Assembly (NCBI GenBank): GCA_046726275.1
Contig: JBKPAF010000054.1
Coordinates: forward strand, 471-64,470
Length of the DNA stretch: 64,000 nt
Direction: 5' to 3'
Origin: Actinomycetota bacterium
GTDB lineage: Bacteria > Actinomycetota > UBA4738
Position numbers and translations under genes: made by a program. Positions 5,570-59,880 of this stretch are shown one piece after another. The first letter of the stretch is position 1. Each line of letters opens with the position of its first letter. The notes beneath the pieces were generated by a model. It made no database searches. It was given only the letters and a program-made list of their open reading frames with translations, and was not told the origin of the DNA.

Positions 5570-6937
5570 ATGCGTGCTCCTGGTCGACCGGTATCTCTTG
5601 TGTCCTCAGTCGGCGCGGTCGTCCTCCTCCTCTTCACGACAGGGGTGAACGCGCGCCCTGACAGTGCGGTGCCAAAGGGGATTCGGCTGCAGACCGCTGG
5701 GGCATCCGCAACGGTTGCAACGTCCGAGTCAGGGGAGGAGCTGCCCCCGCCCGATTGTCCGGCCGCCGTCCCCGACCGGCTGAAGGCTCCGCGCCTTCCG
5801 TGGCCGGTCGTGTTCACGACCTCGTGCGGACGCTACGCCCTCTTCCGCGATGGGCGCCTGGCCAGGCTTCCCGCCGTGACGGAACCGGGCTGGCTGGCCC
5901 TGTCGTCCGCGGGCCCAGGCGTCCAAGCCCAGGTTCAAGACCGGCATGTGGTGTTCACCCGTCGCGGCGATGTCCTCTGGCGGTCCATGGGAACCTTCGA
6001 CCCTCAGTTCCTGGGCTCCTCGGTCTTCGGGGCCGGCTGGCTGGCCTTCAGTGTGTATGGCAGCGATTCGAGCGAGCTGTACATGAGCACAGTCCCTGGC
6101 TCGGAGCGCCATGTGGCTGGAAACGAGGATCCCATTAGCGTCACCGCGACCGGCAACCTGATCATCTCGCGAAGCCATGCGGACGGCGCCGATCCCGATC
6201 TGATCGTGCGCAGGCCGGATGGGATGCCCGCGGGTCTGATCGCTCGTTCGGTCTCGGTCTCCTACACGGAACCACAGTCAGGAACCCTGCTCTATCTCCA
6301 CGGCCGGACCCTTCAGCGGACGGATGGCGTGCGTTCCCGGACGGTCGCCCGACTCGAAGCTCTCGGCGTTCCAGGCCTCGAATTCGTCGATCGACTGGAG
6401 GACGGCCGCATCCTTTTGACCGGGCGGAGAAGCATCGCCGTGCTGGACCGCGATGGCCTGGTGCTCGCCAGCGCAACGCTTTCTCCGATTCCTCGTGGAG
6501 GTTCGGGATGGGTCAATGTTTCCTCGACGTACGGTCGGACCGGCCTGATCCTGAGCCCGGATCCCTCAACCAGCGGGATCGTCCTCATCCAGGCGGTATG
6601 GCGGGATGCGAACGCAGGGGGCGGACCTGGCTGGGAAGGTATCTATGAGCTTCGCGTCCGAGGAACGTCTGCGCGACTGCTGTTCGGTAAACGCCTCACG
6701 CTCGCCGTCTGCGCTCACGAATCCCATGTCTCCTGGCACGGCCGCTGGTTGCTGTACTCAGCCTGCGAGGGGCGAGTAGTGGCGATCGACACTACCGGTC
6801 GCCACCCGGCCATCGACCTCACGCGGGCAGGTCGTGCGGTCCCGATACCGAATGAGGAGCGAGCCTACGGCTCAGCCGCGGAGTGGGCGACCTTCGCAAC
6901 CCCCGCGGACATGGCCCGGTCCGGCCGAATGACCTAG
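5570..6937 (+). CDS. Secreted hypothetical protein (beta-rich, possibly propeller-like)
   Basis: 3' part of track ORF 4163..6937. From the in-frame ATG at 5570 it starts MRAPGRPVSLVSSVGAVVLLLFTTGVNA, which is signal-peptide-like. I recognised no family motif. GTG 5561 is an alternative start. Confidence 0.6.
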   Translation: MRAPGRPVSLVSSVGAVVLLLFTTGVNARPDSAVPKGIRLQTAGASATVATSESGEELPPPDCPAAVPDRLKAPRLPWPVVFTTSCGRYALFRDGRLARLPAVTEPGWLALSSAGPGVQAQVQDRHVVFTRRGDVLWRSMGTFDPQFLGSSVFGAGWLAFSVYGSDSSELYMSTVPGSERHVAGNEDPISVTATGNLIISRSHADGADPDLIVRRPDGMPAGLIARSVSVSYTEPQSGTLLYLHGRTLQRTDGVRSRTVARLEALGVPGLEFVDRLEDGRILLTGRRSIAVLDRDGLVLASATLSPIPRGGSGWVNVSSTYGRTGLILSPDPSTSGIVLIQAVWRDANAGGGPGWEGIYELRVRGTSARLLFGKRLTLAVCAHESHVSWHGRWLLYSACEGRVVAIDTTGRHPAIDLTRAGRAVPIPNEERAYGSAAEWATFATPADMARSGRMT

Positions 6938-7365
6938 CGGGAAGTCGCCGTCGGCCCCTCTTGGACCAACTCCACAAGCACTCCTCGAAACCCCCGGGGG
7001 TGGACGAACGCAACCGTAGTTCCCCGTGATCCGTGCCGCGGCGAGTCGTCCACGAGCGGGACACCAGCATCGCGCAGCCTGTCGAGAGCGGACGCGATGT
7101 CCGTAACCCGGTATCCGATGTGGTGCAATCCCTCGCCTCGCTTCTGAAGGAATCTTCCCACCGGGGTCTCCGGACCGAGCGCCGCCACCAGCTGGATATA
7201 GGACGAACCGGCTCGGAACAGAACTTCCTCCACTCCCTGGTCCTCCACCACCTCGCGGTGGATCGGCTCGATCCCCAGAGCCGCGCTGTACTCGCGCACG
7301 GCGGCATCGAGGTCGGCAACGGCGATCCCCACGTGGTCGATGTCCTGCAGAACGCACCCTTCCAC
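6934..7365 (-). CDS. mce: Methylmalonyl-CoA epimerase (VOC family)
   Basis: Track ORF of 143 aa. IDHVGIAVADLDAAVREY...GEGLHHIGYRV...TVAFVHPRGFRGVLVELVQ matches the MCE/glyoxalase-fold pattern. It sits in a propionate-metabolism context with pccB. Confidence 0.85.
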   Translation of the reverse strand: MEGCVLQDIDHVGIAVADLDAAVREYSAALGIEPIHREVVEDQGVEEVLFRAGSSYIQLVAALGPETPVGRFLQKRGEGLHHIGYRVTDIASALDRLRDAGVPLVDDSPRHGSRGTTVAFVHPRGFRGVLVELVQEGPTATSR

Positions 7366-7368
7366 GCG

Positions 7369-7743
7369 CTAGCGGCTCCTCCTCCGCCGGCCCTCGGCGG
7401 GCGCGGGCTGGAGGCGGGAGATCAGGTCCCACGCCTCCGGGAGGTGATACGCGGGGCTGGAGAGCGCGGCGATCATCGCCGCCACCCCTTGGTAGCGGAT
7501 CTGGGAAGGCGATCCCCCGGTCTTCAGCGCGTAGAACTCGACCAGCTCCATGAACTGCTTCAGCGAAGGGACGAGGCCTCCTCGTTCGTACGCATAGATC
7601 GTCTGCTGGGCGGCGGGGCAACCGGGCACGGCAGCCGCATCCTTGACCGCTCGATAGCCGGCCGACCGTCTGAGCCCTCGCAGAAGGCCGCCGATCCGTC
7701 GAGCGACATCGATTTCGACCGGCTCTTGCTTTTTTCGGGGCAC
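7369..7743 (-). CDS. XRE-like helix-turn-helix transcriptional regulator
   Basis: Track ORF of 124 aa with a GTG start preceded by AGGAGG 8 nt upstream. HTH-like segment: AAQQTIYAYERGGLVPSLKQFMELVEFY. It ends 3 nt before the mce start. Confidence 0.6.
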   Translation of the reverse strand: MPRKKQEPVEIDVARRIGGLLRGLRRSAGYRAVKDAAAVPGCPAAQQTIYAYERGGLVPSLKQFMELVEFYALKTGGSPSQIRYQGVAAMIAALSSPAYHLPEAWDLISRLQPAPAEGRRRRSR

Positions 7744-7956
7744 GAATCATCCTCCTGCAGGTGCCGGTTGTGATCGCCTGGCTGGCCTTTTCACCTTAGA
7801 GCCTGGGTTCCGATTTGTCAGAGAAGAGGCCCTGACCGGCCCATCCAGGGCTTCCGTTCCCTGGATGCGCCAAACGGGTACCGAGACCAAAGTCGCGGGC
7901 ACTCCAGCCCCGGTAAGGCCTTTGGTCCGTGGTTTGTTTCCAGCAGCCGGGGTACC

Positions 7957-9966
7957 ATGCCTCACGAGAAAAGCGCCCTCACGCAGCAAGAACGTGCGTG
8001 CGGGGTCCCGCCGGCGGGCTTTGACCGGGAGCGTTACGTGACTGAGAAGAACAGGGTAGCCGCCGTTCTCGGCGACTCCAAGGTTCTGCGGTCGGGCCTG
8101 GCCGACGTGAGCCGGATCCGGGAGCGAACCCGGCGGCGCCGGCTGTACCGGGCCATCGTGATCCTCGGCTCCCTGGACCTGTACTTGTGGTTCCGGTGGG
8201 CATCGGGCAACCCCATCCAGCCGCCTCACCTGCCATCGGACTGGGGCATCTGGATGCCAATGGTCATCCTGATGCTCATCTTCGGCGTGGTGCTGCTCAT
8301 GCCGCTGATGAGCGGCAAGTCGCCTCACGTGATGATTCGTCCGGAACACATCGAGGTTGGCCTGTCCGACGTGAAGGGTCTGGACACCCAGGTCGACGAA
8401 GTGATCAGGTCCCTGAACGTCTTCCTCGGCTACGCCACTTTCCGGGAGGTCCTCGGGGGGAATCCTCGGCGCGGCATTCTCTTCGAGGGCCCCCCCGGAA
8501 CGGGCAAGACGTATCTGGCGAAGGCCATGGCGAAACAGGCAGGCGTGCCGTTCCTCTTCGTCTCAGCTCCGGCTTTCCAGTCCATGTGGTTCGGCATGAC
8601 GAACGTCCGTATCCGCTCGTTCTTCAAGGCGCTGCGCAAGGCTGCCCGTCGCGAGGGCGGGGCAATCGGCTTCATCGAGGAGATCGACGCCATCGGCACG
8701 GACCGGAGTGGACTGGGGATGCACGCCGTGCCTCCGTCCCTTGATCGGTCCGTTGCGCGGTTCGCGTCTCCGGGTACGGGAGGGATGGTCAACGAGCTCC
8801 TGATCCAGATGCAGTCGTTCGACCAGCCCCAATGGGGGCAACGGATCAAAGAACGATTCGTGAACTGGCTGAACGGCTACCTCCCCGAGGGGCGAACCAT
8901 CAAGGTCGGGAAGCCGAAGTACCACAACCTGTTACTGATCGCCGCGACGAACCGCGCGGACTCGCTCGACTCGGCGTTGCTCCGTCCCGGGCGTTTCGAC
9001 CGACGGCTCTACTTCGATCTCCCCACCAAGCAGGGCCGCCGCGACCTGATCGACTTCTTCCTCGAGCGCAAGGCCCATCACGAGCTGCTGGATGAGGACG
9101 GCGCCCGGGAGCGGATGGCCCACGACACCCTCGGCTATACGCCGGTGATGATCGAGCACCTCCTGGACGAAGCTCTCCTCGTGGCGCTGCGGGACGGCCG
9201 GGACGGCATGGGCATCTCGGACATCTACGAGGCCAAGTTGACGGAGGAGATCGGCCTGGCCCAGCGCGTCCTGTACACGGAGGCCGAGCGGCGGGCGGTG
9301 GCCACCCACGAGGCCGGCCATGCCGTGGCCGCCCACCTCCTGGGCAAGACCAGGAGGTTGGAGGTCCTCTCCATCATCAAGCGCCGGACGGCGCTTGGGC
9401 TCCTCGCCCATAGCGAGCTGGAAGAGCGCTTCACGCGGTCCCGGTCAGAGCTCGAGGCGCTGATCGCCATCGCCCTCGGCGGGATGGCGGCGGAGGAGGT
9501 CTTCCTGGGGGAGACGGGAACCGGCCCGGGGTCCGATCTCGCCAGCGCCACCGAGGTCGCCGCGATGATGGTGGGCGCCCTGGGCATGGGCGGGTCGCTG
9601 ATCTCCTACGAAGCCGTGGCCGAAGGCCTGGCCTCGCGGTCGAACCTGGTGGGCAAGGTGCTCGCCGATCGGGACACCAAGGCCAGGGTCGAAGCGCTCC
9701 TGGATGCGCAGAAGGAGCGGATCCGAGGCGTGCTGGAGGAGAACCGGGACCTGGTCGAGGCGCTGCGCGACGCGCTGATCGCCCGGGACGAGCTGGTGGG
9801 TGAAGAGATCGTCCAGGTCATCCACCAGGCGTTGGCCCAGCGGGCGGGCTACTCGCCGAACGGCGGTCCCGGGGCGGACGCGTCGGACACGCTCATCGTG
9901 TTGCCGAACGGGTCCGATGACGCCGCGCTCCCCGAACAGGCCGGCGACGCCCCGCCGAACGAGTAG
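7957..9966 (+). CDS. Divergent FtsH-family AAA+ zinc metalloprotease (paralogue)
   Basis: Track ORF of 669 aa with two N-terminal TM helices. Motifs: Walker A GPPGTGKT, Walker B GFIEEIDAIG, LLRPGRFDR, zinc motif HEAGHAV. It deviates from canonical FtsH around SAPAFQSMWFGMTNVRIRSFF and has a roughly 45-aa insert before LLLIAATNR. Confidence 0.85.
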   Translation: MPHEKSALTQQERACGVPPAGFDRERYVTEKNRVAAVLGDSKVLRSGLADVSRIRERTRRRRLYRAIVILGSLDLYLWFRWASGNPIQPPHLPSDWGIWMPMVILMLIFGVVLLMPLMSGKSPHVMIRPEHIEVGLSDVKGLDTQVDEVIRSLNVFLGYATFREVLGGNPRRGILFEGPPGTGKTYLAKAMAKQAGVPFLFVSAPAFQSMWFGMTNVRIRSFFKALRKAARREGGAIGFIEEIDAIGTDRSGLGMHAVPPSLDRSVARFASPGTGGMVNELLIQMQSFDQPQWGQRIKERFVNWLNGYLPEGRTIKVGKPKYHNLLLIAATNRADSLDSALLRPGRFDRRLYFDLPTKQGRRDLIDFFLERKAHHELLDEDGARERMAHDTLGYTPVMIEHLLDEALLVALRDGRDGMGISDIYEAKLTEEIGLAQRVLYTEAERRAVATHEAGHAVAAHLLGKTRRLEVLSIIKRRTALGLLAHSELEERFTRSRSELEALIAIALGGMAAEEVFLGETGTGPGSDLASATEVAAMMVGALGMGGSLISYEAVAEGLASRSNLVGKVLADRDTKARVEALLDAQKERIRGVLEENRDLVEALRDALIARDELVGEEIVQVIHQALAQRAGYSPNGGPGADASDTLIVLPNGSDDAALPEQAGDAPPNE

Positions 9967-23531: not shown

Positions 23532-25013
23532 GTGGCTGAGCTGTGCGACCTCAGCGGACACGAGCTTGCTCCCCTCCTGAGGACGGGTGAGGCCTCGGCT
23601 ACCGCGATCGTGGAATCTGCCCTTCGGCGCATCGACGCGGTGGACGAGCGGCTGCACGCCTTCCTCGTGGTCACGGAGGGACTGGCCCGCCCGCGGGCCG
23701 AGGAGATCGACCGGGCGCTCCACGCCGGCCGCGAACTCCCCGCGGTGGCCGGCATTCCGCTGGCTCTGAAAGACGTCCTCTGCACGAGGGGCATCCGCAC
23801 GACCGCCGGTTCGAAGATCCTCGAGCCCTACGTCCCGCCGTACAGCTGCACGCCATGGCAGCGTCTGGACGACGCGTGGTCCCTCCTGATGGGAAAGACG
23901 AACTGCGACGAGTTCGCCATGGGTTCGTCCAACGAGAACTCTGCCTACGGTCCCGCCCACAATCCTTGGGACCTGGGCACCGTTCCGGGGGGTTCGTCTG
24001 GCGGCTCGGCGGCGGCCGTGGCCGCGGGCGAGGCGGTCTGGGCCCTCGGGACGGACACGGGCGGCTCGGTGCGTCAGCCGGCCTCGCTCTGCGGGGTGGT
24101 CGGCATGAAGCCGACGTACGGGCGCATCTCCCGGTATGGGCTGATCGCGTTCGCCTCCTCGTTGGATCACATCGGCGTGTTCTCCCGGGACGTTCGGGAC
24201 GCGGCGACCCTCCTTGGGGCGATCGCCGGGCACGATCCGATGGACGCCACGAGCCTGCCCGACCCTGTTCCCGACTATGCCGCCAGCCTCGAGGGTGGAG
24301 TGAAGGGCCTGAGGATCGGCTTGGTCGAGGACTGGCTCTCGACGGAGGGGGTGCAGCCGGGGGTGCGGGACCGCGTGCGGGAAGCGGTGGACCGGCTGGA
24401 GCGGCTGGGAACGTCCGTGGAGCCGGTCAGCCTCCCCAACGCCGAATACGCGCTCTCCGCCTACTACCTGCTCGCCCCCGCGGAGTGCTCCTCGAACCTC
24501 GCTCGCTACGACGGGGTCCGCTACGGCTTTCGCGCAGCGGACGGCCCCGACGTGATGGACATGAACCTGCGAACCCGGGGCCAGGGTTTCGGGGACGAGG
24601 TCAAGCGCCGAATCATGCTCGGCACCTACTCTCTGTCGGCCGGCTACTACGACGCCTACTACGGGCAGGCCCAGAAGGTCCGCACGCTGGTCATCCAGGA
24701 CTTCGACCGGGCGTTCGAGCGGTTCGACCTCCTGGTCGCGCCGACCTCGCCCACGACGGCGTTCAGGCTGGGCGAGAAGACCGAGGACCCGCTCGCGATG
24801 TACCTCTCCGACGTCTTCACGATCCCTTCGAACCTCTCGGGGATGCCCGCGATCAGCATCCCGTGCGGGTTGGGACCCGACGGCCTCCCGGTGGGCCTCC
24901 AGCTCATGGGCAGATTCCTGGACGAAGCGACCGTCCTCCGCGCGGCCTACGCGCTGGAGCAGGATCTCGGGGTCACGGACAGGCCGCCGCTGGTGGAGTC
25001 GCTGGGCGGCTAG
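23532..25013 (+). CDS. gatA: Asp/Glu-tRNA(Asn/Gln) amidotransferase subunit A
   Basis: Track ORF of 493 aa. Amidase signature: GGSSGGSAAAVAAGE...GTDTGGSVRQPAS. Also KDVLCTRGIRTTAGSKIL. Confidence 0.95.
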   Translation: MAELCDLSGHELAPLLRTGEASATAIVESALRRIDAVDERLHAFLVVTEGLARPRAEEIDRALHAGRELPAVAGIPLALKDVLCTRGIRTTAGSKILEPYVPPYSCTPWQRLDDAWSLLMGKTNCDEFAMGSSNENSAYGPAHNPWDLGTVPGGSSGGSAAAVAAGEAVWALGTDTGGSVRQPASLCGVVGMKPTYGRISRYGLIAFASSLDHIGVFSRDVRDAATLLGAIAGHDPMDATSLPDPVPDYAASLEGGVKGLRIGLVEDWLSTEGVQPGVRDRVREAVDRLERLGTSVEPVSLPNAEYALSAYYLLAPAECSSNLARYDGVRYGFRAADGPDVMDMNLRTRGQGFGDEVKRRIMLGTYSLSAGYYDAYYGQAQKVRTLVIQDFDRAFERFDLLVAPTSPTTAFRLGEKTEDPLAMYLSDVFTIPSNLSGMPAISIPCGLGPDGLPVGLQLMGRFLDEATVLRAAYALEQDLGVTDRPPLVESLGG

Positions 25014-26026
25014 CGGTCCCGAGAGCCGTCCAGGCAGGCGGCGTCCGGCGCGGCGTCGGCCGGGTCGCCCGGAGGGAACTTCCGCGCCGACAGCATCAGC
25101 GCGACAGCTGCCACAATGACCACACCTGCCAGCACCGTACGAGGCGTGATCGCCTCGGATAGGATCGCCCATCCCAGGAACACCGCCACCACCGGGTTGA
25201 CGTAGGCGTAGGTCGAGACCAGAGAGGTGGGCGCGGACCGGAGCAGCCAGACGTACGCGGAGAACGCCACCCACGATCCGAACACGATCAGATACGCCAG
25301 CCCGAAGAGGGAGGCGGTGGTGAACCGTTCCGGGTGGATGTCGGAGAACTCTCCGTGAATCGCGCCGGCGATCGCCAGCGCCACACCGCCCGCCAGCATC
25401 TCCATGCTCGTTGTGACCAGCGGTCGCGAGGGGAGCCGGGCGGTTCTCGAATACATCGAGCCGATGGACCAGCCGATCGCGGCCGCGAGCAAGATCACCA
25501 TCCCCACGGCATCGAGCTTCCCGCCGCCCGTCCCTCCCACCAGCAGGCCGAGTCCGCCGAAGCCCAGCACCAACCCGGCGATGGCCTGGGGGGCCAGGCG
25601 CTGCCCGAAGAAGATCCGGTCGATCATGGCCATCCACAGCGGGGTGGTGGCGATCACCAGCGCGGTCACGCCGGTGGGGACGCTGCGCTCGGCCAGGACC
25701 ACGCCGCCGTTGCCGACGAGGAGAAGGAGAACGCCGACGACGCAGGCCGCCCGCCACTGGGGCCATCCGGGACGGTCGGCCACGCGATCTCCCCGGCGGA
25801 TCGCCCACGCGTACAGGAGCGCTCCGGCGACGAGGAAGCGGACGGACGCCATGAGCAGGGGAGGAAGGGTCAGGACCGCCTCGCGGATGGCGAGGTAGGT
25901 GGACCCCCAGATCACGTAGACGGCCCCCAGGGCCAGCCAGATCAGCGCGGTGGAAGCCTGCCGCTGCGGCTCGCCGGCGGCGTTCACAAGGCGGACGCGG
26001 GATGAGCGCGTGGCACGACGGGCCAT
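25010..26026 (-). CDS. EamA/DMT-superfamily permease
   Basis: Track ORF of 338 aa with about 10 TM helices. It has duplicated EamA-type halves (IWGSTYLAIREAV... and WSIGSMYSR...). Confidence 0.85.
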   Translation of the reverse strand: MARRATRSSRVRLVNAAGEPQRQASTALIWLALGAVYVIWGSTYLAIREAVLTLPPLLMASVRFLVAGALLYAWAIRRGDRVADRPGWPQWRAACVVGVLLLLVGNGGVVLAERSVPTGVTALVIATTPLWMAMIDRIFFGQRLAPQAIAGLVLGFGGLGLLVGGTGGGKLDAVGMVILLAAAIGWSIGSMYSRTARLPSRPLVTTSMEMLAGGVALAIAGAIHGEFSDIHPERFTTASLFGLAYLIVFGSWVAFSAYVWLLRSAPTSLVSTYAYVNPVVAVFLGWAILSEAITPRTVLAGVVIVAAVALMLSARKFPPGDPADAAPDAACLDGSRDR

Positions 26027-26085: not shown

Positions 26086-27540
26086 ATGGCCGACGCGTTC
26101 GAGACCGTCATCGGGCTGGAGTGCCACGTCGAGCTGGCAACGACGACGAAGATGTTCTGCGGTTGTCTCAACGAGTTCGGGGCCCCTCCGAACGTCAACG
26201 TGTGCCCGGTCTGCCTGGGGCACCCAGGGACGCTTCCGGTACCCAACGAGAAGGCCATCGAGTACACGATCAAGATCGGGCTCGCCCTCGATTGCGAGAT
26301 CGTCCCTCGATCGCTGTTCCACCGGAAGAACTACTTCTATCCGGACATGCCCAAGAACTTCCAGATCTCCCAGTACGACCTCCCGCTGTGCGTCAACGGC
26401 CACCTCGACATCGAGGTCGACCGGGAACCCCGTCGCATCGGCATCACCCGCGTCCACCTGGAGGAGGACACGGGCAAGACGGCCCATGCGGGGGCCACCG
26501 GACGGATCGGGGGGGCCGAGTATGCCCTGGAGGACTACAACCGGGCGGGCGTCCCTCTGGTCGAGGTGGTGTCCGAGCCCGATATGCGGACCCCGGAGGA
26601 GGCCCGCGCCTACTTCACTGAGCTCAGGGGCACCCTGGAGGCTCTGGGGGTATCGGACGTCCGCATGGAGGAAGGCTCCCTTCGGTGCGACGCCAATATC
26701 AGTGTTCGCGCGCCGGGCAGCCCGGAACTCGGCACCAAGGTCGAGATCAAGAACCTGAACTCGATCCGCTCGATCTACCAGGCGCTCCGATACGAGCAGG
26801 ACCGGCAGCTCGAGGCGATCAGGCGGGGCGAGAGGCTGATCCAGGAGACCCGGCACTGGGAGGAGAACCGTGGTGTCACGACCCACGGCCGGTCCAAGGA
26901 GTACGCGTTCGACTACCGGTACTTCCCCGAGCCCGACCTCGCGCCGATCGAGCCCGACCCGGAGTGGATCGAGAAGCTACGGGCGGAGCTGCCGGAGCTG
27001 CCCTCTTCCCGGCGGCGCCGGTTCGAGGACGCGTATGGCCTGGATCCCCGCCAAGGGGCGCTGGTCGGCGGGACCCGGGCGTGGGCCGACTTCTTCGAAC
27101 AGACCGTGTCGCTTGGCGCGGATCCGAAGGCCGTGGCGAACTGGATGAGCGGAGACCTGGCCGCTCTGCTCCGGGAAAACGCGCAGTCGATCGAAGGGTC
27201 GAAGGTCACCCCGCAGCACGTGGCCGATCTGATCCGGCTGTTCGCGGAAGGCATCATCTCCTCGGCGGGCGCGAAGACCGCCCTTCAGGTCGCATTCGAC
27301 TCGGGCCAGCCCATCGAACAGATCGTCGAGGAGAGAGGGCTCCGCCAGGTATCGGACGCCTCGGCCCTGGAGGGCGTGATCGACGAGGTGATCAGCGAGA
27401 ACCCGGGGCCGGCCGAGCAATTCCGCAAGGGCAAGGAGGGGGCACTCAATGCGCTGGTCGGCCATGTGATGAAGAAGACCAGGGGCGCGGCCAATCCCGG
27501 ACTGGCCGGCGAGCTCCTCCGTCAGCGGCTGACGGGCTGA
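26086..27540 (+). CDS. gatB: Asp/Glu-tRNA(Asn/Gln) amidotransferase subunit B
   Basis: Track ORF of 484 aa. Motifs: VIGLECHVEL, KMFCGC, NVNVCPVCLGHPGTLP, FHRKNYFYPDMPKNFQISQYD, RVHLEEDTGK. Confidence 0.95.
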   Translation: MADAFETVIGLECHVELATTTKMFCGCLNEFGAPPNVNVCPVCLGHPGTLPVPNEKAIEYTIKIGLALDCEIVPRSLFHRKNYFYPDMPKNFQISQYDLPLCVNGHLDIEVDREPRRIGITRVHLEEDTGKTAHAGATGRIGGAEYALEDYNRAGVPLVEVVSEPDMRTPEEARAYFTELRGTLEALGVSDVRMEEGSLRCDANISVRAPGSPELGTKVEIKNLNSIRSIYQALRYEQDRQLEAIRRGERLIQETRHWEENRGVTTHGRSKEYAFDYRYFPEPDLAPIEPDPEWIEKLRAELPELPSSRRRRFEDAYGLDPRQGALVGGTRAWADFFEQTVSLGADPKAVANWMSGDLAALLRENAQSIEGSKVTPQHVADLIRLFAEGIISSAGAKTALQVAFDSGQPIEQIVEERGLRQVSDASALEGVIDEVISENPGPAEQFRKGKEGALNALVGHVMKKTRGAANPGLAGELLRQRLTG

Positions 27541-27558
27541 GCCCCCACGTTCGAGCGC

Positions 27559-30225
27559 TCAGCTGGTGGGCAGCTCGGCCGTCCAGACGCCTGCCCGCGT
27601 TCCGTCGCGGCCCACGACGATCAGGTGTGATCCCGTGCGGGTGATGCCGGTCATCACCCGATTCCCTCCGGAGCCGATGGCCCTGGTGGATCGGGTCCAC
27701 GTCACGCCGTCCTCCGAATACCACACGGCGGCGCCCGTTTCCTCACCGGCCTCGTCGACCCCTACCGCCATCAATCCGAACCCGGGAACCTCGACGATCC
27801 CTCGCATCACTTGCACGTCGTCCGCAGCCAGGGCGTCCTGTGTGGGAGCCCGATCCCACGTCCTGCCGTCCACAGACGTCCACACGGCGGCATCCCGATT
27901 CCCGTTCGGACTGTCGTATCCCACGGCGACGAAACCCCCCTGGAACGCGACCACGCTTACGATGGATGCATCGCCTCGTCCGCCTCTCACCGTTCCGCGA
28001 TCCCAAGAGTTGACCGAATCGTCGAAGAACCACGCGGCGGCCTGGCCCTTCTCGTCGCCGACCACCACGATCTGACCGTTGCCATCTGTCACGTCCCGCA
28101 GACTGCTGCCGGCGGCCTCCTCGAAGACCGGATTGGTCGCCTTGTCCCAATGCAGCCCATCGTCCGATGGCCATAGGCGGGCGTGGCCGCCGCTCACCCC
28201 TACGCCGATAGCGACGTCCCGCACGATGGCCACCCGGTTCATGAAGGTGTCCCCGGCACCATGGAAATCGGCCTGATCCGGAACGGGGGTCCACGTCGCG
28301 CCGCCGTCCGGGGAGATCCACGCGGCCGCTGACCTTGTCCGCTGCCCTGCGAGCTTCTCCCATCCCACCGCCACAAGGCCCGTCTCGTCGCCTGCGATCC
28401 CCTGGGCAACCTGGGTCCCTCCTTCCGTGGAGGCGAGCAGTATCCGGCGACTCCAGGAGAAACCATCGGAGGACACCCAGACTGCCCCGCTGGACCCATC
28501 GTTGCCCGCAGCGAGCAACGTCCCGCCGACGAAGGCCGGCCGCAGCATGGATCCGGACCTGGTGGCTTGGATATCCCTCGATGGCACGGGGGCGAACGAG
28601 ATCTTCGAAAGTGGGGATGTGGTGAGAGCGGTCCCACTCGGTCCCGACGTCGGCGTGAGCCCTCCGGTCGGTTTGGTCGAGGGACCGGGACCGCCGCCCC
28701 GACTGATCAAGGCGACAACCAGAACGATCAGGGCGATCGCACCCGCGATCACTCCGAGCACGGCTCCTCGGTGCCGTTGCCAGATCCCGCCTGGTGGCGG
28801 CACGGGCGAAGGGCGCTCCGCCGGCGGGTGCTCTGCCGGCGATGGAGCGACGTCGGGACGGACGGGCGAGACGGCCTCGGCCGCAGGCTCGAGCGCGCTC
28901 GGAAGCGGTCCCGGTGGGGCAGTGGAGACGACCGGGGAGGCGGCTTCTGCCGGGGTGAGGGGGGTCGTCTCCGGCTCTACGGCCGGCGCGACCGTCTCGG
29001 CTTCCGCGGCCTCGACGTCAGCCGCGGCGGGGGGCGCAGCCGCAGCTGTAACGACGACCGAACGGGTGGGCTGATCATGCTCGCGTTGAGCTCGCGCTTC
29101 CAGGCGCTCGTCCCGGTCCTCGATCTCGAAGATCCGTCCGTCGGGGGACCGCATGTAGAGGACGGGCGTCGCCCACTCGACGGCGTTGACCCGGGTGAAG
29201 ATGGCCTTGCGGGCCTCGGACAGCGCAGCGTCGACCGGATACCCGTCCGCCACCGCCGAGTAGAACTCGTTGGCCATCGTGATCGCCGCGACGTCCGAGA
29301 TCTCGAACTGCATCGCGATGACCGCGGGGATGCCCTTGCGGACCAGGCTCTGGGCCGTGCCGGCGAAGGGATCGGTCGTCGAGGTCCGCGCGCCCTCGCA
29401 GGCGTTCAGGACCACCAGCCTGAGCGCCTCGTGGTCGTGCAGGAGGACGCCGAGGGACTCGCCCGACACGGGGTGGCCCCTGCCTTCGAGGTCCTCCAGC
29501 AGGAGCACGCCATCCTGAGCCTCCTCGTCGAACGCCCCGTGCCCCACGAAGTGCAGGACGTGATACTCCTCCCGGCGGAGCCTTCGCTGAAGCGCCTCCA
29601 GGGAGGGCGTGTCGACCCGGTCCATCACCAGGCGGCCCTCGGTGACGGTCGGGCCGAGCGCCTCGTTGAGCTTGGCCCACTCGTGCTCCACGTCCAGAGG
29701 CGGGTAGCCGCTCGGGCTGGAGATCAGGCACAGCATCCGCAACGGCGGGGTCGCGGCGAGCGGCTCAACCCGCTGGGGCAGGTCGATGTACCTGACCAGA
29801 GGCGTCTGGTCGGAGAGGCACAGGAAGCCATCCGAGGAGCTGTCGTAGAGGAACTCCCAGGGGATGTTCGCCAGCGCCGGGGCGTCTCCCAGATGAAGCC
29901 GGACCCGGAGGCCTGCGTGGCTCCGATCGGCCTCGTCCATGCTCCTCAACAGGCACGTGCTGACCGGCCCGGAGAACAGAGACTCGTACAGGTGGCCGCC
30001 GAAGGAGCGCACGTCCTTCATCTGGGGGGACGCGATCGCCCGAACCGTCCGTCTGGTGGTCAGCCGGAAGACCTGGAGAACCAGGATCTCCAGGTCCTTC
30101 TCGGAGAACGGAAGGGTGAAGGTCGTTTCGGATTCCCCGGCGGGCGAGTCGAGGACCGTGGCCCGGTAGTTGGGCCCGTCGCTCTCGATGAGCAGGTCGA
30201 AGTCTAGATACGAGTTGGGTGACAC
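27559..30225 (-). CDS. CHAT (caspase-like) protease - Pro/Ala linker - single TM - Asp-box beta-propeller fusion protein
   Basis: Track ORF of 888 aa with a GTG start and GGAG upstream. CHAT dyad contexts are YHVLHFVGHGAF and LVVLNACEGA. The TM helix is AVLGVIAGAIALIVLVVALIS. Six S/D-x-D-G-x-x-W blades (VSSDGFSW, ISPDGGATW, PSDDGLHW, TSVDGRTW, YSEDGVTW and others) fill the C-terminal 330 aa. Confidence 0.8.
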   Translation of the reverse strand: MSPNSYLDFDLLIESDGPNYRATVLDSPAGESETTFTLPFSEKDLEILVLQVFRLTTRRTVRAIASPQMKDVRSFGGHLYESLFSGPVSTCLLRSMDEADRSHAGLRVRLHLGDAPALANIPWEFLYDSSSDGFLCLSDQTPLVRYIDLPQRVEPLAATPPLRMLCLISSPSGYPPLDVEHEWAKLNEALGPTVTEGRLVMDRVDTPSLEALQRRLRREEYHVLHFVGHGAFDEEAQDGVLLLEDLEGRGHPVSGESLGVLLHDHEALRLVVLNACEGARTSTTDPFAGTAQSLVRKGIPAVIAMQFEISDVAAITMANEFYSAVADGYPVDAALSEARKAIFTRVNAVEWATPVLYMRSPDGRIFEIEDRDERLEARAQREHDQPTRSVVVTAAAAPPAAADVEAAEAETVAPAVEPETTPLTPAEAASPVVSTAPPGPLPSALEPAAEAVSPVRPDVAPSPAEHPPAERPSPVPPPGGIWQRHRGAVLGVIAGAIALIVLVVALISRGGGPGPSTKPTGGLTPTSGPSGTALTTSPLSKISFAPVPSRDIQATRSGSMLRPAFVGGTLLAAGNDGSSGAVWVSSDGFSWSRRILLASTEGGTQVAQGIAGDETGLVAVGWEKLAGQRTRSAAAWISPDGGATWTPVPDQADFHGAGDTFMNRVAIVRDVAIGVGVSGGHARLWPSDDGLHWDKATNPVFEEAAGSSLRDVTDGNGQIVVVGDEKGQAAAWFFDDSVNSWDRGTVRGGRGDASIVSVVAFQGGFVAVGYDSPNGNRDAAVWTSVDGRTWDRAPTQDALAADDVQVMRGIVEVPGFGLMAVGVDEAGEETGAAVWYSEDGVTWTRSTRAIGSGGNRVMTGITRTGSHLIVVGRDGTRAGVWTAELPTS

Positions 30226-30410
30226 GATGCCGCTCCGGGCCTTTCGGCCGCTCTCCCTCGAAGGTAGGGCGATGCTACCCTGGGCCGCCCGTTCGTGGAA
30301 TCCCTTCCTTGGGGGAATCGCCGGGTCCCGGAGGGAGCCGCAGAAAATCAGTTGATCCGCTTGCCTCGGGACGGCGAATCCCGTACAACCCTGCCGCGCA
30401 AAGGGAGCCC

Positions 30411-31304
30411 ATGGCCTCGGGATTCGACCTCGACAAGTACCTCCGGGCCTCGAAGAAGGTCGATCTGTCGGGGATCGACTGGAGGCGCGTCAAGGACCAT
30501 CCCCTGTCCATCGCGGAGGCGAGGACGCTCGCCTACATGATGGACATCGAGAGCCACACGGTGATCTTCCTCCGGGACCTGCTGGCGACCAGGGCCGCGT
30601 TCGAGCCGGAAGTGACCGCCTTCCTGTCGTGCTGGGTCTATGAGGAGCTCTGGCACGGCGAAGCCTTCAGCAGGTTCCTGGGCGAGGCCGGTTACGAGCT
30701 GCCCCCGGACCGCGAGCGGGTCTGGAACGACGCTCCGTACCCCTCCCGAACGGGGCGGAACACCTGGATCAGAAGGAAATTGGGAGCGAAAGGATATGTC
30801 TCGTACTTGGCCACCACGGCGGCAGCCGCGGTGATCAAGGACTTCGTCGCCGTCCACATGACGTGGGGGGCCGTCAACGAGCTGTCCACCCTGAGTGGGT
30901 ACCACCGGCTGATCGCCACGACCGAACACCCCGTGCTGGTCGACCTCCTCGACCGGATCATCAAGGACGAGCGCCGCCACTTCGCCTTCTACCGCGCTCA
31001 GGCTCGGATGCGGCTGGAGCGCAGCCGGCAAGCTCGCACGGTCACCCGGTGGGCGCTGGAGCACCTGTGGGCGCCGGTAGGGACCGGGGTGCGCCCGCAG
31101 CAGGAGACGGATTTCGTCGTGACCTACCTGTTCGGGAACGCCGAGGGCCGGGTAGCGGCGGCCGAGCTCGACGCGACGATCGGCGACCTTCCCGGACTCG
31201 ACGGTATCCACATCTATCGGGACGCTCTCCGCCAGGCGCTCCGCCGGACGCGCGCGCTGCCTCCAGGAAGGGTGACCACACCCCTCGCCGCGTTCCGAGC
31301 CTGA
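30411..31304 (+). CDS. Ferritin-like di-iron protein (acyl-ACP desaturase-like fold)
   Basis: In-frame ATG at 30411 (AAGGGAG upstream) in track ORF 30219..31304. It has two E-x-x-H motifs (VYEELWHGEAF and IIKDERRHFAFY) on predicted helices. Confidence 0.65.
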   Translation: MASGFDLDKYLRASKKVDLSGIDWRRVKDHPLSIAEARTLAYMMDIESHTVIFLRDLLATRAAFEPEVTAFLSCWVYEELWHGEAFSRFLGEAGYELPPDRERVWNDAPYPSRTGRNTWIRRKLGAKGYVSYLATTAAAAVIKDFVAVHMTWGAVNELSTLSGYHRLIATTEHPVLVDLLDRIIKDERRHFAFYRAQARMRLERSRQARTVTRWALEHLWAPVGTGVRPQQETDFVVTYLFGNAEGRVAAAELDATIGDLPGLDGIHIYRDALRQALRRTRALPPGRVTTPLAAFRA

Positions 31305-49540: not shown

Positions 49541-49613
49541 TAGTCCCAACGGGATTCGAACCCGTGTCTCCACCTTGAGAGGGTGGTGTCCTAGGCCTCT
49601 AGACGATGGGACC
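49541..49613 (-). tRNA. tRNA-Glu (anticodon CUC)
   Basis: Reverse complement: GGTCCCATCGTCTAGAGGCCTAGGACACCACCCTCTCAAGGTGGAGACACGGGTTCGAATCCCGTTGGGACTA. It folds as a cloverleaf with a 7-bp acceptor, D arm TCTAGAGGCCTAGGA, anticodon stem CCACC/GGTGG, loop CTCTCAA, and T arm ACGGG-TTCGAAT-CCCGT. CCA is not encoded. Confidence 0.9.
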
Positions 49614-59809: not shown

Positions 59810-59880
59810 CTGGCCCGCCTGGATTCGAACCAGGACTAACTGATCCAGAGTCAGTCGGGCTACCGTTACCCCACGGGCCA
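59810..59880 (-). tRNA. tRNA-Gln (anticodon CUG)
   Basis: Reverse complement: TGGCCCGTGGGGTAACGGTAGCCCGACTGACTCTGGATCAGTTAGTCCTGGTTCGAATCCAGGCGGGCCAG. It has U1-A72 (typical of bacterial tRNA-Gln), anticodon stem ACTGA/TCAGT, loop CTCTGGA, and T arm CCTGG-TTCGAAT-CCAGG. Confidence 0.85.

Follow-up and report, generated by a model that had tools for sequence, protein, structure and literature searches.

We describe here a gene of an Actinomycetota bacterium (lineage UBA4738) that encodes a caspase-like CHAT protease, one transmembrane (TM) helix and a beta-propeller. The gene lies on the minus strand of the 64,000-nucleotide stretch analyzed in this work (GenBank assembly GCA_046726275.1, contig JBKPAF010000054.1, positions 471 to 64,470), which we call the window throughout. 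Its protease half is conserved like housekeeping genes, and the linker, TM helix and ectodomain that follow behave as an exchangeable cassette, always in the same place between gatB and serA. This constant/variable structure of the locus appears to be new and is our chief result. By computation we also established the architecture, catalytic dyad, topology and folds of the protein and the linkage of its relatives to an effector gene. We put the chance at somewhat better than even that the protein is a single-pass, outside-in receptor-protease, activated by clustering and fitted with an interchangeable extracytoplasmic sensor.

Protease, membrane helix and propeller

The original prediction, made from the sequence alone, had identified a CHAT domain with a dyad of His229 and Cys276, and profile, invariance, fold and residue numbering now agree with it. 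Pfam CHAT (PF12770) matched residues 76-344 with E=6.1e-29 (101.8 bits against a cutoff of 24). The segment YHVLHFVGHGAF begins at residue 221 and LRLVVLNACEGA begins at residue 268, which places the histidine at 229 and the cysteine at 276; both are invariant in 12 of 12 full-length orthologues and in 65 of 65 diverse family members, and they align to the dyad region of SAVED-CHAT 8tl0. An AlphaFold2 (AF2) model of the N-terminal 380 residues (pLDDT 89.9) has a CHAT/separase-like fold, in which an alpha+beta lead-in of three strands and three helices (about residues 1-101), conserved family-wide, precedes a caspase-like core. The best Foldseek matches of this module were Craspase Csx29, SAVED-CHAT, separase and DdvA (probability 1.00), with further matches to metacaspase, gingipain, caspase-9 and MALT1; the SAVED-CHAT filament 8tl0 was among the top matches by structure and by sequence alike. 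By profile, dyad and fold, then, the window protein is a bona fide CHAT peptidase, and peptidase activity is predicted for it.

The protease module is followed by the Pro/Ala-rich linker that had been predicted (residues 376-481), ~110 aa rich in Ala, Pro and Val whose sequence and length are unconserved among orthologues. A Kyte-Doolittle scan of the protein found a single hydrophobic segment, residues 488-508 (19-residue peak 3.19), immediately after the basic WQRHRG, of which W482 and R486 are kept in at least 90% of orthologues; no N-terminal hydrophobic segment was found in the same scan. We counted Lys and Arg in the 15 residues on either side of the helix in 132 family members that have just one helix beyond the catalytic Cys. 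The means were 3.26 before the helix and 1.31 after it, a positive-inside bias seen in 110 members and reversed in 7 (Wilcoxon p=2.8e-19). Homologues of the propeller point the same way: some carry a lipobox signal peptide and others a short cytoplasmic head and then one TM helix, and Thr/Ser/Pro-rich linkers resembling the stalk of the window protein come after the lipobox in the lipoproteins. Because of the positive-inside bias, the context of the homologous propellers and a C-terminal hypervariability typical of exposed surfaces, an N-in/C-out orientation, with the protease cytoplasmic and the propeller outside, is supported. The single helix with its basic lead, the missing signal peptide and this orientation had all been proposed from the sequence, and they stand. 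A sensor-outside, protease-inside logic thus follows from the topology together with the propeller homologues that sit behind one TM helix.

The cytoplasmic linker takes a distinctive form in two related proteins, P0010 and P0011 (locus L004 8001-10568; also L124 and L125), whose genes are linked to Pepco, a neighbor treated below. Here it consists of tandem AEREAAEQRAQDQ-type repeats, with tandem EAAEQRAQDQAER-type expansions in P0010, and near-identical proteins of this type within one 90% cluster measure 855, 874, 894 and 907 aa. Linker length is polymorphic in this type because the repeat copy number differs between near-identical proteins.

An AF2 model of the C-terminal 349 residues is a beta-propeller (pLDDT 94.6, pTM 0.92). 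The six predicted W-x-S-x-D-G-x-x-W (S/T-x-D-G-x-x-W) Asp-box motifs are present and conserved across 66 homologues, but the count of six blades plus a closing strand, AGVWTAEL, has to be revised: the strand pattern and in-register layout give seven blades, of which six carry an Asp-box, and the N-terminal strand SFAPV completes blade 7. The best Foldseek match was Ycf48 (5ojr; TM-scores 0.63/0.72), and sialidases matched at lower TM-scores of 0.47-0.52. A sialidase or glycosidase propeller is ruled out by the seven blades, by the non-enzymatic nature of Ycf48 and by the lack of a conserved R-x-P site, the corresponding stretch reading MLRPAF in the window and MLRLAS or VLRAVS in other orthologues. 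We collected 243 propeller homologues, mostly Actinomycetota proteins of 400-500 aa and mostly with PF25852; heads joined to these propellers include a class III adenylate cyclase (P0129), a zf-HC2 anti-sigma domain (P0225) and a Zn-ribbon. On the window propeller itself the precomputed PF25852 match is faint, a local Pfam search found none at E<=1, and a profile search against the PDB reached a DUF6242 protein with E=0.004.

At an equivalent position, the first modelled strand of each blade carries one orthologue-invariant polar residue (R562, Q608, R664, R710, S757, R808 and T859). Because these residues are invariant despite an overall propeller identity of 40-47%, they suggest a conserved ligand site; being mostly Arg, they may form a candidate site for an anionic ligand, of the envelope or foreign, presumed to lie near the central channel. 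In another genome, the 8 kb around the gene for a CHAT-TM-propeller protein (P0032) also hold genes for a 746-aa TIR_2 plus DUF6242_C propeller protein and for a Zn-ribbon-guanylate cyclase-AAA_16-TPR protein, so that within a single genome region this type of propeller is joined to several outputs of immune type.

Constant and variable parts of the locus

The gene occupies the same position in L001, L002/L003, L005, L086 and L088, with gatB-EamA-gatA-gatC-LytR on one side and an aminotransferase-serA block on the other. A further locus, L087, ends just upstream of the CHAT gene; its gatB side is visible, and it is collinear with the window for ~800 bp upstream of the gene. Within this shared setting the two halves of the gene differ sharply in conservation. 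In comparisons with L002 and L005, respectively, identity is 93% and 90% for serA, 87% and 86% for gatB, 89.5% and 81.4% for the CHAT module, and 47% and 40% for the propeller. In blastn comparisons of the DNA, the upstream genes and the CHAT module align collinearly at 72-90% identity. In each of the five comparisons this similarity ends at window 29089-29126, near codon 375, and it picks up again only at window 27518-27933, at or near the 3' end of the gene. In L086 and L088 the cassette segment encodes a PASTA plus PD40 propeller instead. The original prediction had described the anatomy of the gene and missed this mosaic.

Comparisons of whole proteins gave a consistent result. P0005 has a CHAT module ~96% identical to that of the window protein and a propeller only ~42% identical, and P0010 pairs a propeller that is among the closest (66%) with the CHAT module that diverges most (~55%); because these identities run opposite ways, the histories of the two modules are incongruent. 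Ratios of nonsynonymous to synonymous substitution rates (dN/dS) by the Nei-Gojobori method (NG86) were 0.065-0.14 for the CHAT module (dS 0.41-0.89) and 0.34-0.41 for the propeller, whose dS of 1.3-1.7 is near saturation, so that the NG86 values are qualitative only and do not decide for or against positive selection. The higher propeller dS suggests a deeper, separately inherited history of the cassette, the GC content and base composition of which are not anomalous. The cassette diversity seen at the gatB/serA locus is that of six genomes; a metagenome scan for alleles at the gatB locus added two close relatives only, both of the P0006/P0007 type.

The family, its partner genes and the window setting

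Thousands of proteins of Acidobacteriota, Chloroflexota, Actinomycetota, Verrucomicrobiota, Deltaproteobacteria, KSB1 and other groups share the first ~375 residues of the window protein at 54-63% identity. An exhaustive HMMER search returned 7,120 matches at E<=1e-30 among 1.84 billion cluster representatives, so that the family comprises 7,120 or more clusters (at 50% identity), and the top 150 matches all scored above 445 bits. In some 100 of the 120 closest members a single TM helix lies 120-250 residues beyond the catalytic Cys and leads into a domain that differs from member to member: PASTA plus PD40, FGE-sulfatase, SH3b, SBBP, Big_2, ConA-like lectin, TPR or Sel1. Variants with TIR, FHA or AAA domains are without the TM helix, and several genomes hold two or three paralogues with differing sensors. 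A constant module with varied post-helix domains amounts to a family plan in which many inputs feed one constant output, a plan shared with PASTA kinases and anti-sigma factors. Four giant proteins of 1,160-2,342 aa (P0259, P0260, P0261 and P0262) contain two or three stretches matching the constant CHAT module, possibly as tandem CHAT modules in one polypeptide.

We compared gene neighborhoods by unbiased clustering of all open reading frames (ORFs) within 5 kb of 64 family genes. The most frequent recurrent neighbor was a ~115-aa protein at 13 loci, encoded directly upstream on the same strand and often overlapping the CHAT start by 4 nt, which Pfam identifies as Trypco1/Pepco (PF19493; E about 1e-26 to 1e-29). 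Trypco1/2 were defined by Kaur et al. 2020 (PMC7159879) and renamed Pepco in a 2025 preprint (bioRxiv 10.1101/2025.11.14.688446; PMC12642450), according to which Pepco pre-assembles as beta-barrels from which the adjacent protease removes the C-terminal tail, giving a lethal pore. We found Pepco/Trypco1 adjacent in 14 of 84 genome loci and in 15 of 70 independent metagenome loci, nearly always directly upstream, that is, in ~20% of relatives. The original prediction held that no partner or substrate gene is adjacent; this is true of the window, but not of these relatives. Carriers include P0010/P0011, outside the gatB locus, with a propeller 66% identical to the window's, and the cultured Geodermatophilus africanus DSM 45422 (L072), where Pepco (6612-6968) is followed by a CHAT-TM-PD40 gene. 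The Pepco-linked CHAT proteins fall into at least three separate groups in a neighbor-joining tree, which rules out a single clade that might exclude the window protein. The preprint further describes Pepco-associated serine/cysteine proteases fused to FGE, transmembrane STAND and peptidoglycan-binding sensors, and a caspase-like protease that, with no effector, shields Escherichia coli from phages in a Cys-dependent manner (PMC12642450); an orphan protease such as that of the window therefore has a precedent.

In the G. africanus locus (L072 7001-9505) the CHAT-TM-PD40 gene is split into ORFs 7001-9055 and 9095-9505, with the PD40 repeats carried on in the second. This split in the only cultured carrier seen is either a frameshift or pseudogene or a sequencing error. 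The catalytic motif of this protein is LNSCEGAR and not LNACEGAR.

The second group of neighbors, at 5 loci, was TCAD7-CHAT/DUF7379; the remaining clusters, of 4-6 loci, were due to shared synteny or to spurious ORFs. TCAD7, named in Pfam as a "ternary complex associated domain", belongs to the ternary conflict systems that Kaur et al. 2020 described; the same authors report that an alpha/beta-hydrolase gene invariably neighbors the systems that bear caspases (PMC7159879). In Micropruina and other Actinomycetes (L068 2494-8363, L073 and L065), TCAD7-CHAT, DUF7379 and a family CHAT-TM-sensor gene form an operon with overlapping start and stop codons, and in a Verrucomicrobiae metagenome-assembled genome (L031 9034-12486) DUF7362, DUF7379, TCAD7, DUF7363 and CHAT are joined in one 1,150-aa protein beside a family gene. 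The presence of TCAD7-CHAT beside a family CHAT suggests a two-protease cascade.

Coordinates of the gene, its parts and its surroundings are collected in Table 1. The minus-strand ORF of 888 codons was present as predicted, and its GTG start, the upstream GGAG and a start common to all orthologues, (M/V)SPxSYLDFDL, agree with one another. The low dN/dS of the CHAT module indicates purifying selection and thus a real gene, and one entry in the public protein collection (P0001) is identical to the window protein.

Table 1. Features of the CHAT-TM-propeller gene and its upstream region, in window coordinates
Feature	Coordinates	Strand	Basis or remark
CDS, complete, 888 aa plus stop, GTG start	27559..30225	minus	ORF listing; purifying selection
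Constant cytoplasmic module, residues 1-375	29101..30225	minus	Pfam CHAT, AF2/Foldseek, orthologue conservation
Codon of catalytic His229, HF-x-GHG motif	29539..29541	minus	Invariant in two alignments
Codon of catalytic Cys276, LNACEGAR motif	29398..29400	minus	Invariant in two alignments
Hypervariable cassette: linker, TM helix, stalk, ectodomain	27559..29100	minus	Loss of DNA collinearity with related genomes
Low-complexity Pro/Ala/Glu linker, residues 376-481, predicted cytoplasmic tether	28783..29100	minus	Composition
Juxtamembrane W-x-Q/R-R-R/H motif (482-486) and single TM helix (488-508)	28702..28782	minus	Kyte-Doolittle, conservation, positive-inside
Gly/Pro/Ser/Thr-rich extracytoplasmic stalk, residues 509-543	28597..28701	minus	Composition, orthologue alignment
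Seven-bladed Asp-box beta-propeller, residues 544-888, DUF6242_C/Ycf48-like	27562..28596	minus	AF2, Foldseek, homologues
Shine-Dalgarno-like GGAG, 7 nt 5' of GTG	30233..30236	minus	Read from sequence
Divergent intergenic region, presumed promoter region	30226..30410		Common to CDS and 297-aa putative ferritin-like gene

Downstream, gatB and the CHAT gene are convergent (window 27540-27559), and the 18 nt between their stop codons leave scant room for separate terminators. Between gatA (23532-25013) and gatB (26086-27540), and on the strand opposite to theirs, lies an EamA-family transporter gene (25010-26026, minus strand) that overlaps the gatA stop by 4 nt, and the same EamA insertion splits the gatCAB operon in all relatives examined (L001, L002, L005, L086, L087 and L088). 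Upstream, the divergent 297-aa neighbor (30411-31304, plus strand) has two E-x-x-H motifs (EELWHGE and DERRHFAF). The gene is where it had been reported, but its ferritin-like identity is only putative: it matches no Pfam family, and its NCBIfam matches, to R2lox (R2-like ligand-binding oxidase) and the ferritin-like EncB, are non-significant. It stands beside the CHAT gene in L001, L005, L086 and L088 and is absent from L002/L003, which rules it out as a conserved obligatory partner. Plus-strand GC skew reaches -0.165 over the propeller-coding window 27500-28499, the strongest value in the 18 kb profiled, a dip that probably reflects G-rich Gly, Asp, Trp and Val codons on the coding (minus) strand. 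An Rfam scan of the window at the gathering threshold found two tRNA genes only, both far from the CHAT gene (49541-49613 and 59810-59880, minus strand), and no paralogue of the CHAT gene was found elsewhere in the window.

Known systems and the proposed mechanism

Known prokaryotic CHAT proteases are switched on by cytoplasmic sensors, namely CRISPR complexes, cyclic nucleotides and STAND NTPases. The original prediction had recognised no described system in which CHAT is coupled through the membrane to an extracellular propeller. That nothing comparable has been described is not supported, as HetF (CHAT-TM-TPR), the EACC2 caspases and the Pepco-associated sensor-fused proteases precede it. 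HetF of Anabaena sp. PCC 7120 (NF045509; PMC8406250) is the only experimentally studied CHAT protein with a CHAT-TM-C-terminal-domain layout; like the window protein it has an N-terminal CHAT domain, one TM helix and a C-terminal non-catalytic domain, and it is membrane-localised. It differs in that its C-terminal domain is TPR and not a propeller, and in being a cyanobacterial divisome/heterocyst factor, a part of the divisome that interacts with FtsI (PMC8406250), for which no hypervariable ectodomain or effector linkage is reported. The HetF model is the best NCBIfam match of the window protein, at 91.8 bits against a cutoff of 1200 and over profile positions 72-405 of 836; this is a generic CHAT level only and rules out a HetF orthologue.

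Proteins whose caspase module stays constant while the C-terminus varies, and is in some cases extracellular, have been described computationally (Kaur et al. 2021, PMC8195603). These EACC2-caspase systems resemble the window family in a highly variable C-terminus, sometimes extracellular behind TM helices, for which a sensor-to-protease logic was proposed. Their caspase follows a constant N-terminal alpha+beta domain, EACC2, to which the alpha+beta lead-in of the window protein may correspond. They are, however, defined by TRADD-N neighbors, or by an ECF sigma factor and DUF1822, and neither arrangement was recurrent among the ORFs within 5 kb of the 64 family genes. Pepco modules (PMC12642450) share the feature of a sensor-fused serine/cysteine protease, here predicted to be competent, and add a small latent pore-former; the one that has been characterized, a trypsin-like protease with Avs4, works in the cytoplasm and senses phage portal protein, and transmembrane or extracytoplasmic sensing has not been demonstrated for them. 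With no Pepco adjacent, the window gene is not a strict Pepco module.

Three further comparisons concern the separate halves of the protein. DdvA of Myxococcus xanthus (8rot/8rw5; PMC11506125) is likewise a single-pass CHAT protein, matches the module in structure and ties envelope sensing to defense. Its topology is the opposite, with TPR-CHAT periplasmic and a zinc anti-sigma (ZAS) domain cytoplasmic; its CHAT lacks three helices, and its output is the release of a sigma factor. The window protein, with its CHAT N-terminal and cytoplasmic and with no ZAS and no TPR, is not an anti-sigma factor of the DdvA type. Csx29 (TPR-CHAT) and SAVED-CHAT (7zoq, 8d9f and 8tl0) are the best structural matches, have the His-Cys dyad and are controlled by a fused or bound sensor, SAVED-CHAT being activated by filament assembly. 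They differ in being fully cytoplasmic, with no membrane span or ectodomain, and in being switched by RNA-guided complexes or cyclic oligonucleotides, and the window protein, which has no TPR or SAVED domain, is neither Craspase nor SAVED-CHAT. The propellers of Ycf48/HCF136 and of DUF6242_C/BamI (5ojr, 9hjm and 9his) are also seven-bladed, Asp-box and non-enzymatic, Ycf48 having been crystallised with bound D1 peptide (entry titles of 5ojr/5ojp); at 12-13% identity they serve in photosystem II assembly and the Bacteroidota BAM, with no protease fusion. A literature search for CHAT-TM-PASTA or CHAT-TM-propeller proteins found no paper. Sensor-fused CHAT proteases are thus already known; through-membrane coupling to an Asp-box propeller and the effector-less core-genome setting appear new.

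From the binding of a ligand through clustering to the substrate and the role in the cell, we infer the following course of events. Binding of a ligand would cluster the ectodomains outside the cell, and the clustered ectodomains would bring CHAT modules together, as happens in proximity-activated caspases and SAVED-CHAT filaments. The protease so activated would cut a cytoplasmic target, which in about one-fifth of the family is very probably the Pepco/Trypco1 pore-former next door and which for the window protein may be a host protein, its own linker or an effector encoded elsewhere. Clustering would be the most likely and economical mode of activation because a disordered, unconserved linker of ~110 aa could not relay a conformational change. 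By analogy, it also fits the established behavior of the caspase fold and the presence of a SAVED-CHAT filament among the best matches. A hypervariable, recombining ectodomain on a conserved protease suggests envelope surveillance in a conflict setting, directed at phages or competitors.

Several observations weigh against this model of a clustering-activated receptor-protease. The case for clustering consists only of the disorder of the linker and of analogy, and HetF alone among family members with an extracytoplasmic sensor comes with experimental data. The CHAT gene lies in a stable housekeeping neighborhood and not in a defense island, and PADLOC recognised no defense system, its partial SAVED_CHAT and BovA matches reflecting the CHAT domain alone. 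No effector or substrate gene adjoins the gene or was found in the 64-kb window, in which tblastn with 13 Pepco sequences gave no match at E<=1e-3. Finally, a propeller dN/dS below 1, with dS near saturation, points to relaxed rather than positive selection, and hypervariability of the ectodomain could reflect selection on any surface protein, for example a phage receptor.

The outside-in receptor-protease model is common to conflict and physiological roles, and we weigh a conflict role and an envelope-homeostasis role, HetF-like or PASTA-kinase-like, about evenly. The Pepco, TCAD7 and TIR associations, the swappable and fast-diverging sensor and the multiple paralogues per genome speak for conflict; the stable core-genome position, a protease conserved at housekeeping level, the absence of an adjacent effector and PASTA at the same locus speak for physiology. 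One tentative version of the conflict role is a death-receptor-like immune sensor, whose hypervariable ectodomain would detect phage, competitor or envelope damage and whose clustered protease would cut a conserved host protein, leading to arrest or death with no dedicated effector; on this reading, the fixed chromosomal site would hold a repertoire of receptors that is encoded in the germline and exists at the level of the population. About equally doubtful is a HetF-like housekeeping regulator, in which the ectodomain would place the CHAT protease at sites of wall synthesis or division and a cytoplasmic regulator of growth or division would be processed, much as with HetF and FtsI in Anabaena and with the PASTA kinases, readers of peptidoglycan status. 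HetF, the best NCBIfam match, has the same layout and belongs to the divisome together with FtsI (PMC8406250), although its score is no better than a generic CHAT match; the core-genome position is stable across genomes with ~87% identical gatB proteins, the protease module equals housekeeping enzymes in conservation, the L086/L088 allele carries PASTA, a classic peptidoglycan-sensing domain, and no death effector adjoins the window gene. Against this, an ectodomain that is hypervariable and swappable is not what one expects of a divisome part, nor would such a regulator sit easily with a pore-forming death effector in ~20% of relatives, with TCAD7/DUF7379 conflict components in others, with TIR-fused variants or with several genomes holding multiple paralogues of different sensors.

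Two further explanations dispense with signaling from a bound ligand to the protease or place the switch elsewhere. The protein may be a tethered protease that is constitutive or regulated from the cytoplasm, its propeller a wall anchor or adhesin that carries no signal and varies in evasion of phages for which it is the receptor. A long disordered linker that uncouples the halves mechanically, the common hypervariability of surface proteins and the propeller dN/dS below 1 would all agree with this. We nevertheless consider it improbable, as this propeller and other ectodomains recur on signaling outputs (adenylate cyclase, anti-sigma and TIR), anchoring would hardly explain a constant output with variable inputs over more than 7,000 clusters, an unregulated protease beside a lethal pore precursor would be toxic in the relatives, and the polar residues kept in every blade at 40-47% identity argue for a ligand site. 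Less probable still is a self-cleaving release switch, in which CHAT, on a signal, would cut its own linker or the juxtamembrane motif and so free a soluble protease or, in a site-1-like manner, shed the ectodomain. Here the conserved W-x-(Q/R)-R-(R/H) motif of orthologues could serve as the target; "autopeptidase activation" was proposed for the constant-caspase systems (Kaur et al. 2021, PMC8195603), and DdvA was proposed to cut its own linker in trans (PMC11506125). Against it, the positive-inside rule explains the basic motif equally well, the L086 allele does not keep the motif, and the rest of the linker sequence is unconserved.

The mosaic locus offers a concrete handle for studying the receptor-protease model, with a cassette that can be exchanged experimentally, and the Pepco-linked relatives in cultured Actinomycetota, such as G. 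africanus DSM 45422, offer an easy lethal read-out. The family is very large, spans many phyla and is essentially unstudied outside HetF, and it wires one protease through the membrane to dozens of ectodomains. If the outside-in model is true, its members would be widespread bacterial surface receptors whose output is proteolysis, not phosphorylation or transcription, and they would form a parallel to the death receptors and caspases of eukaryotes.

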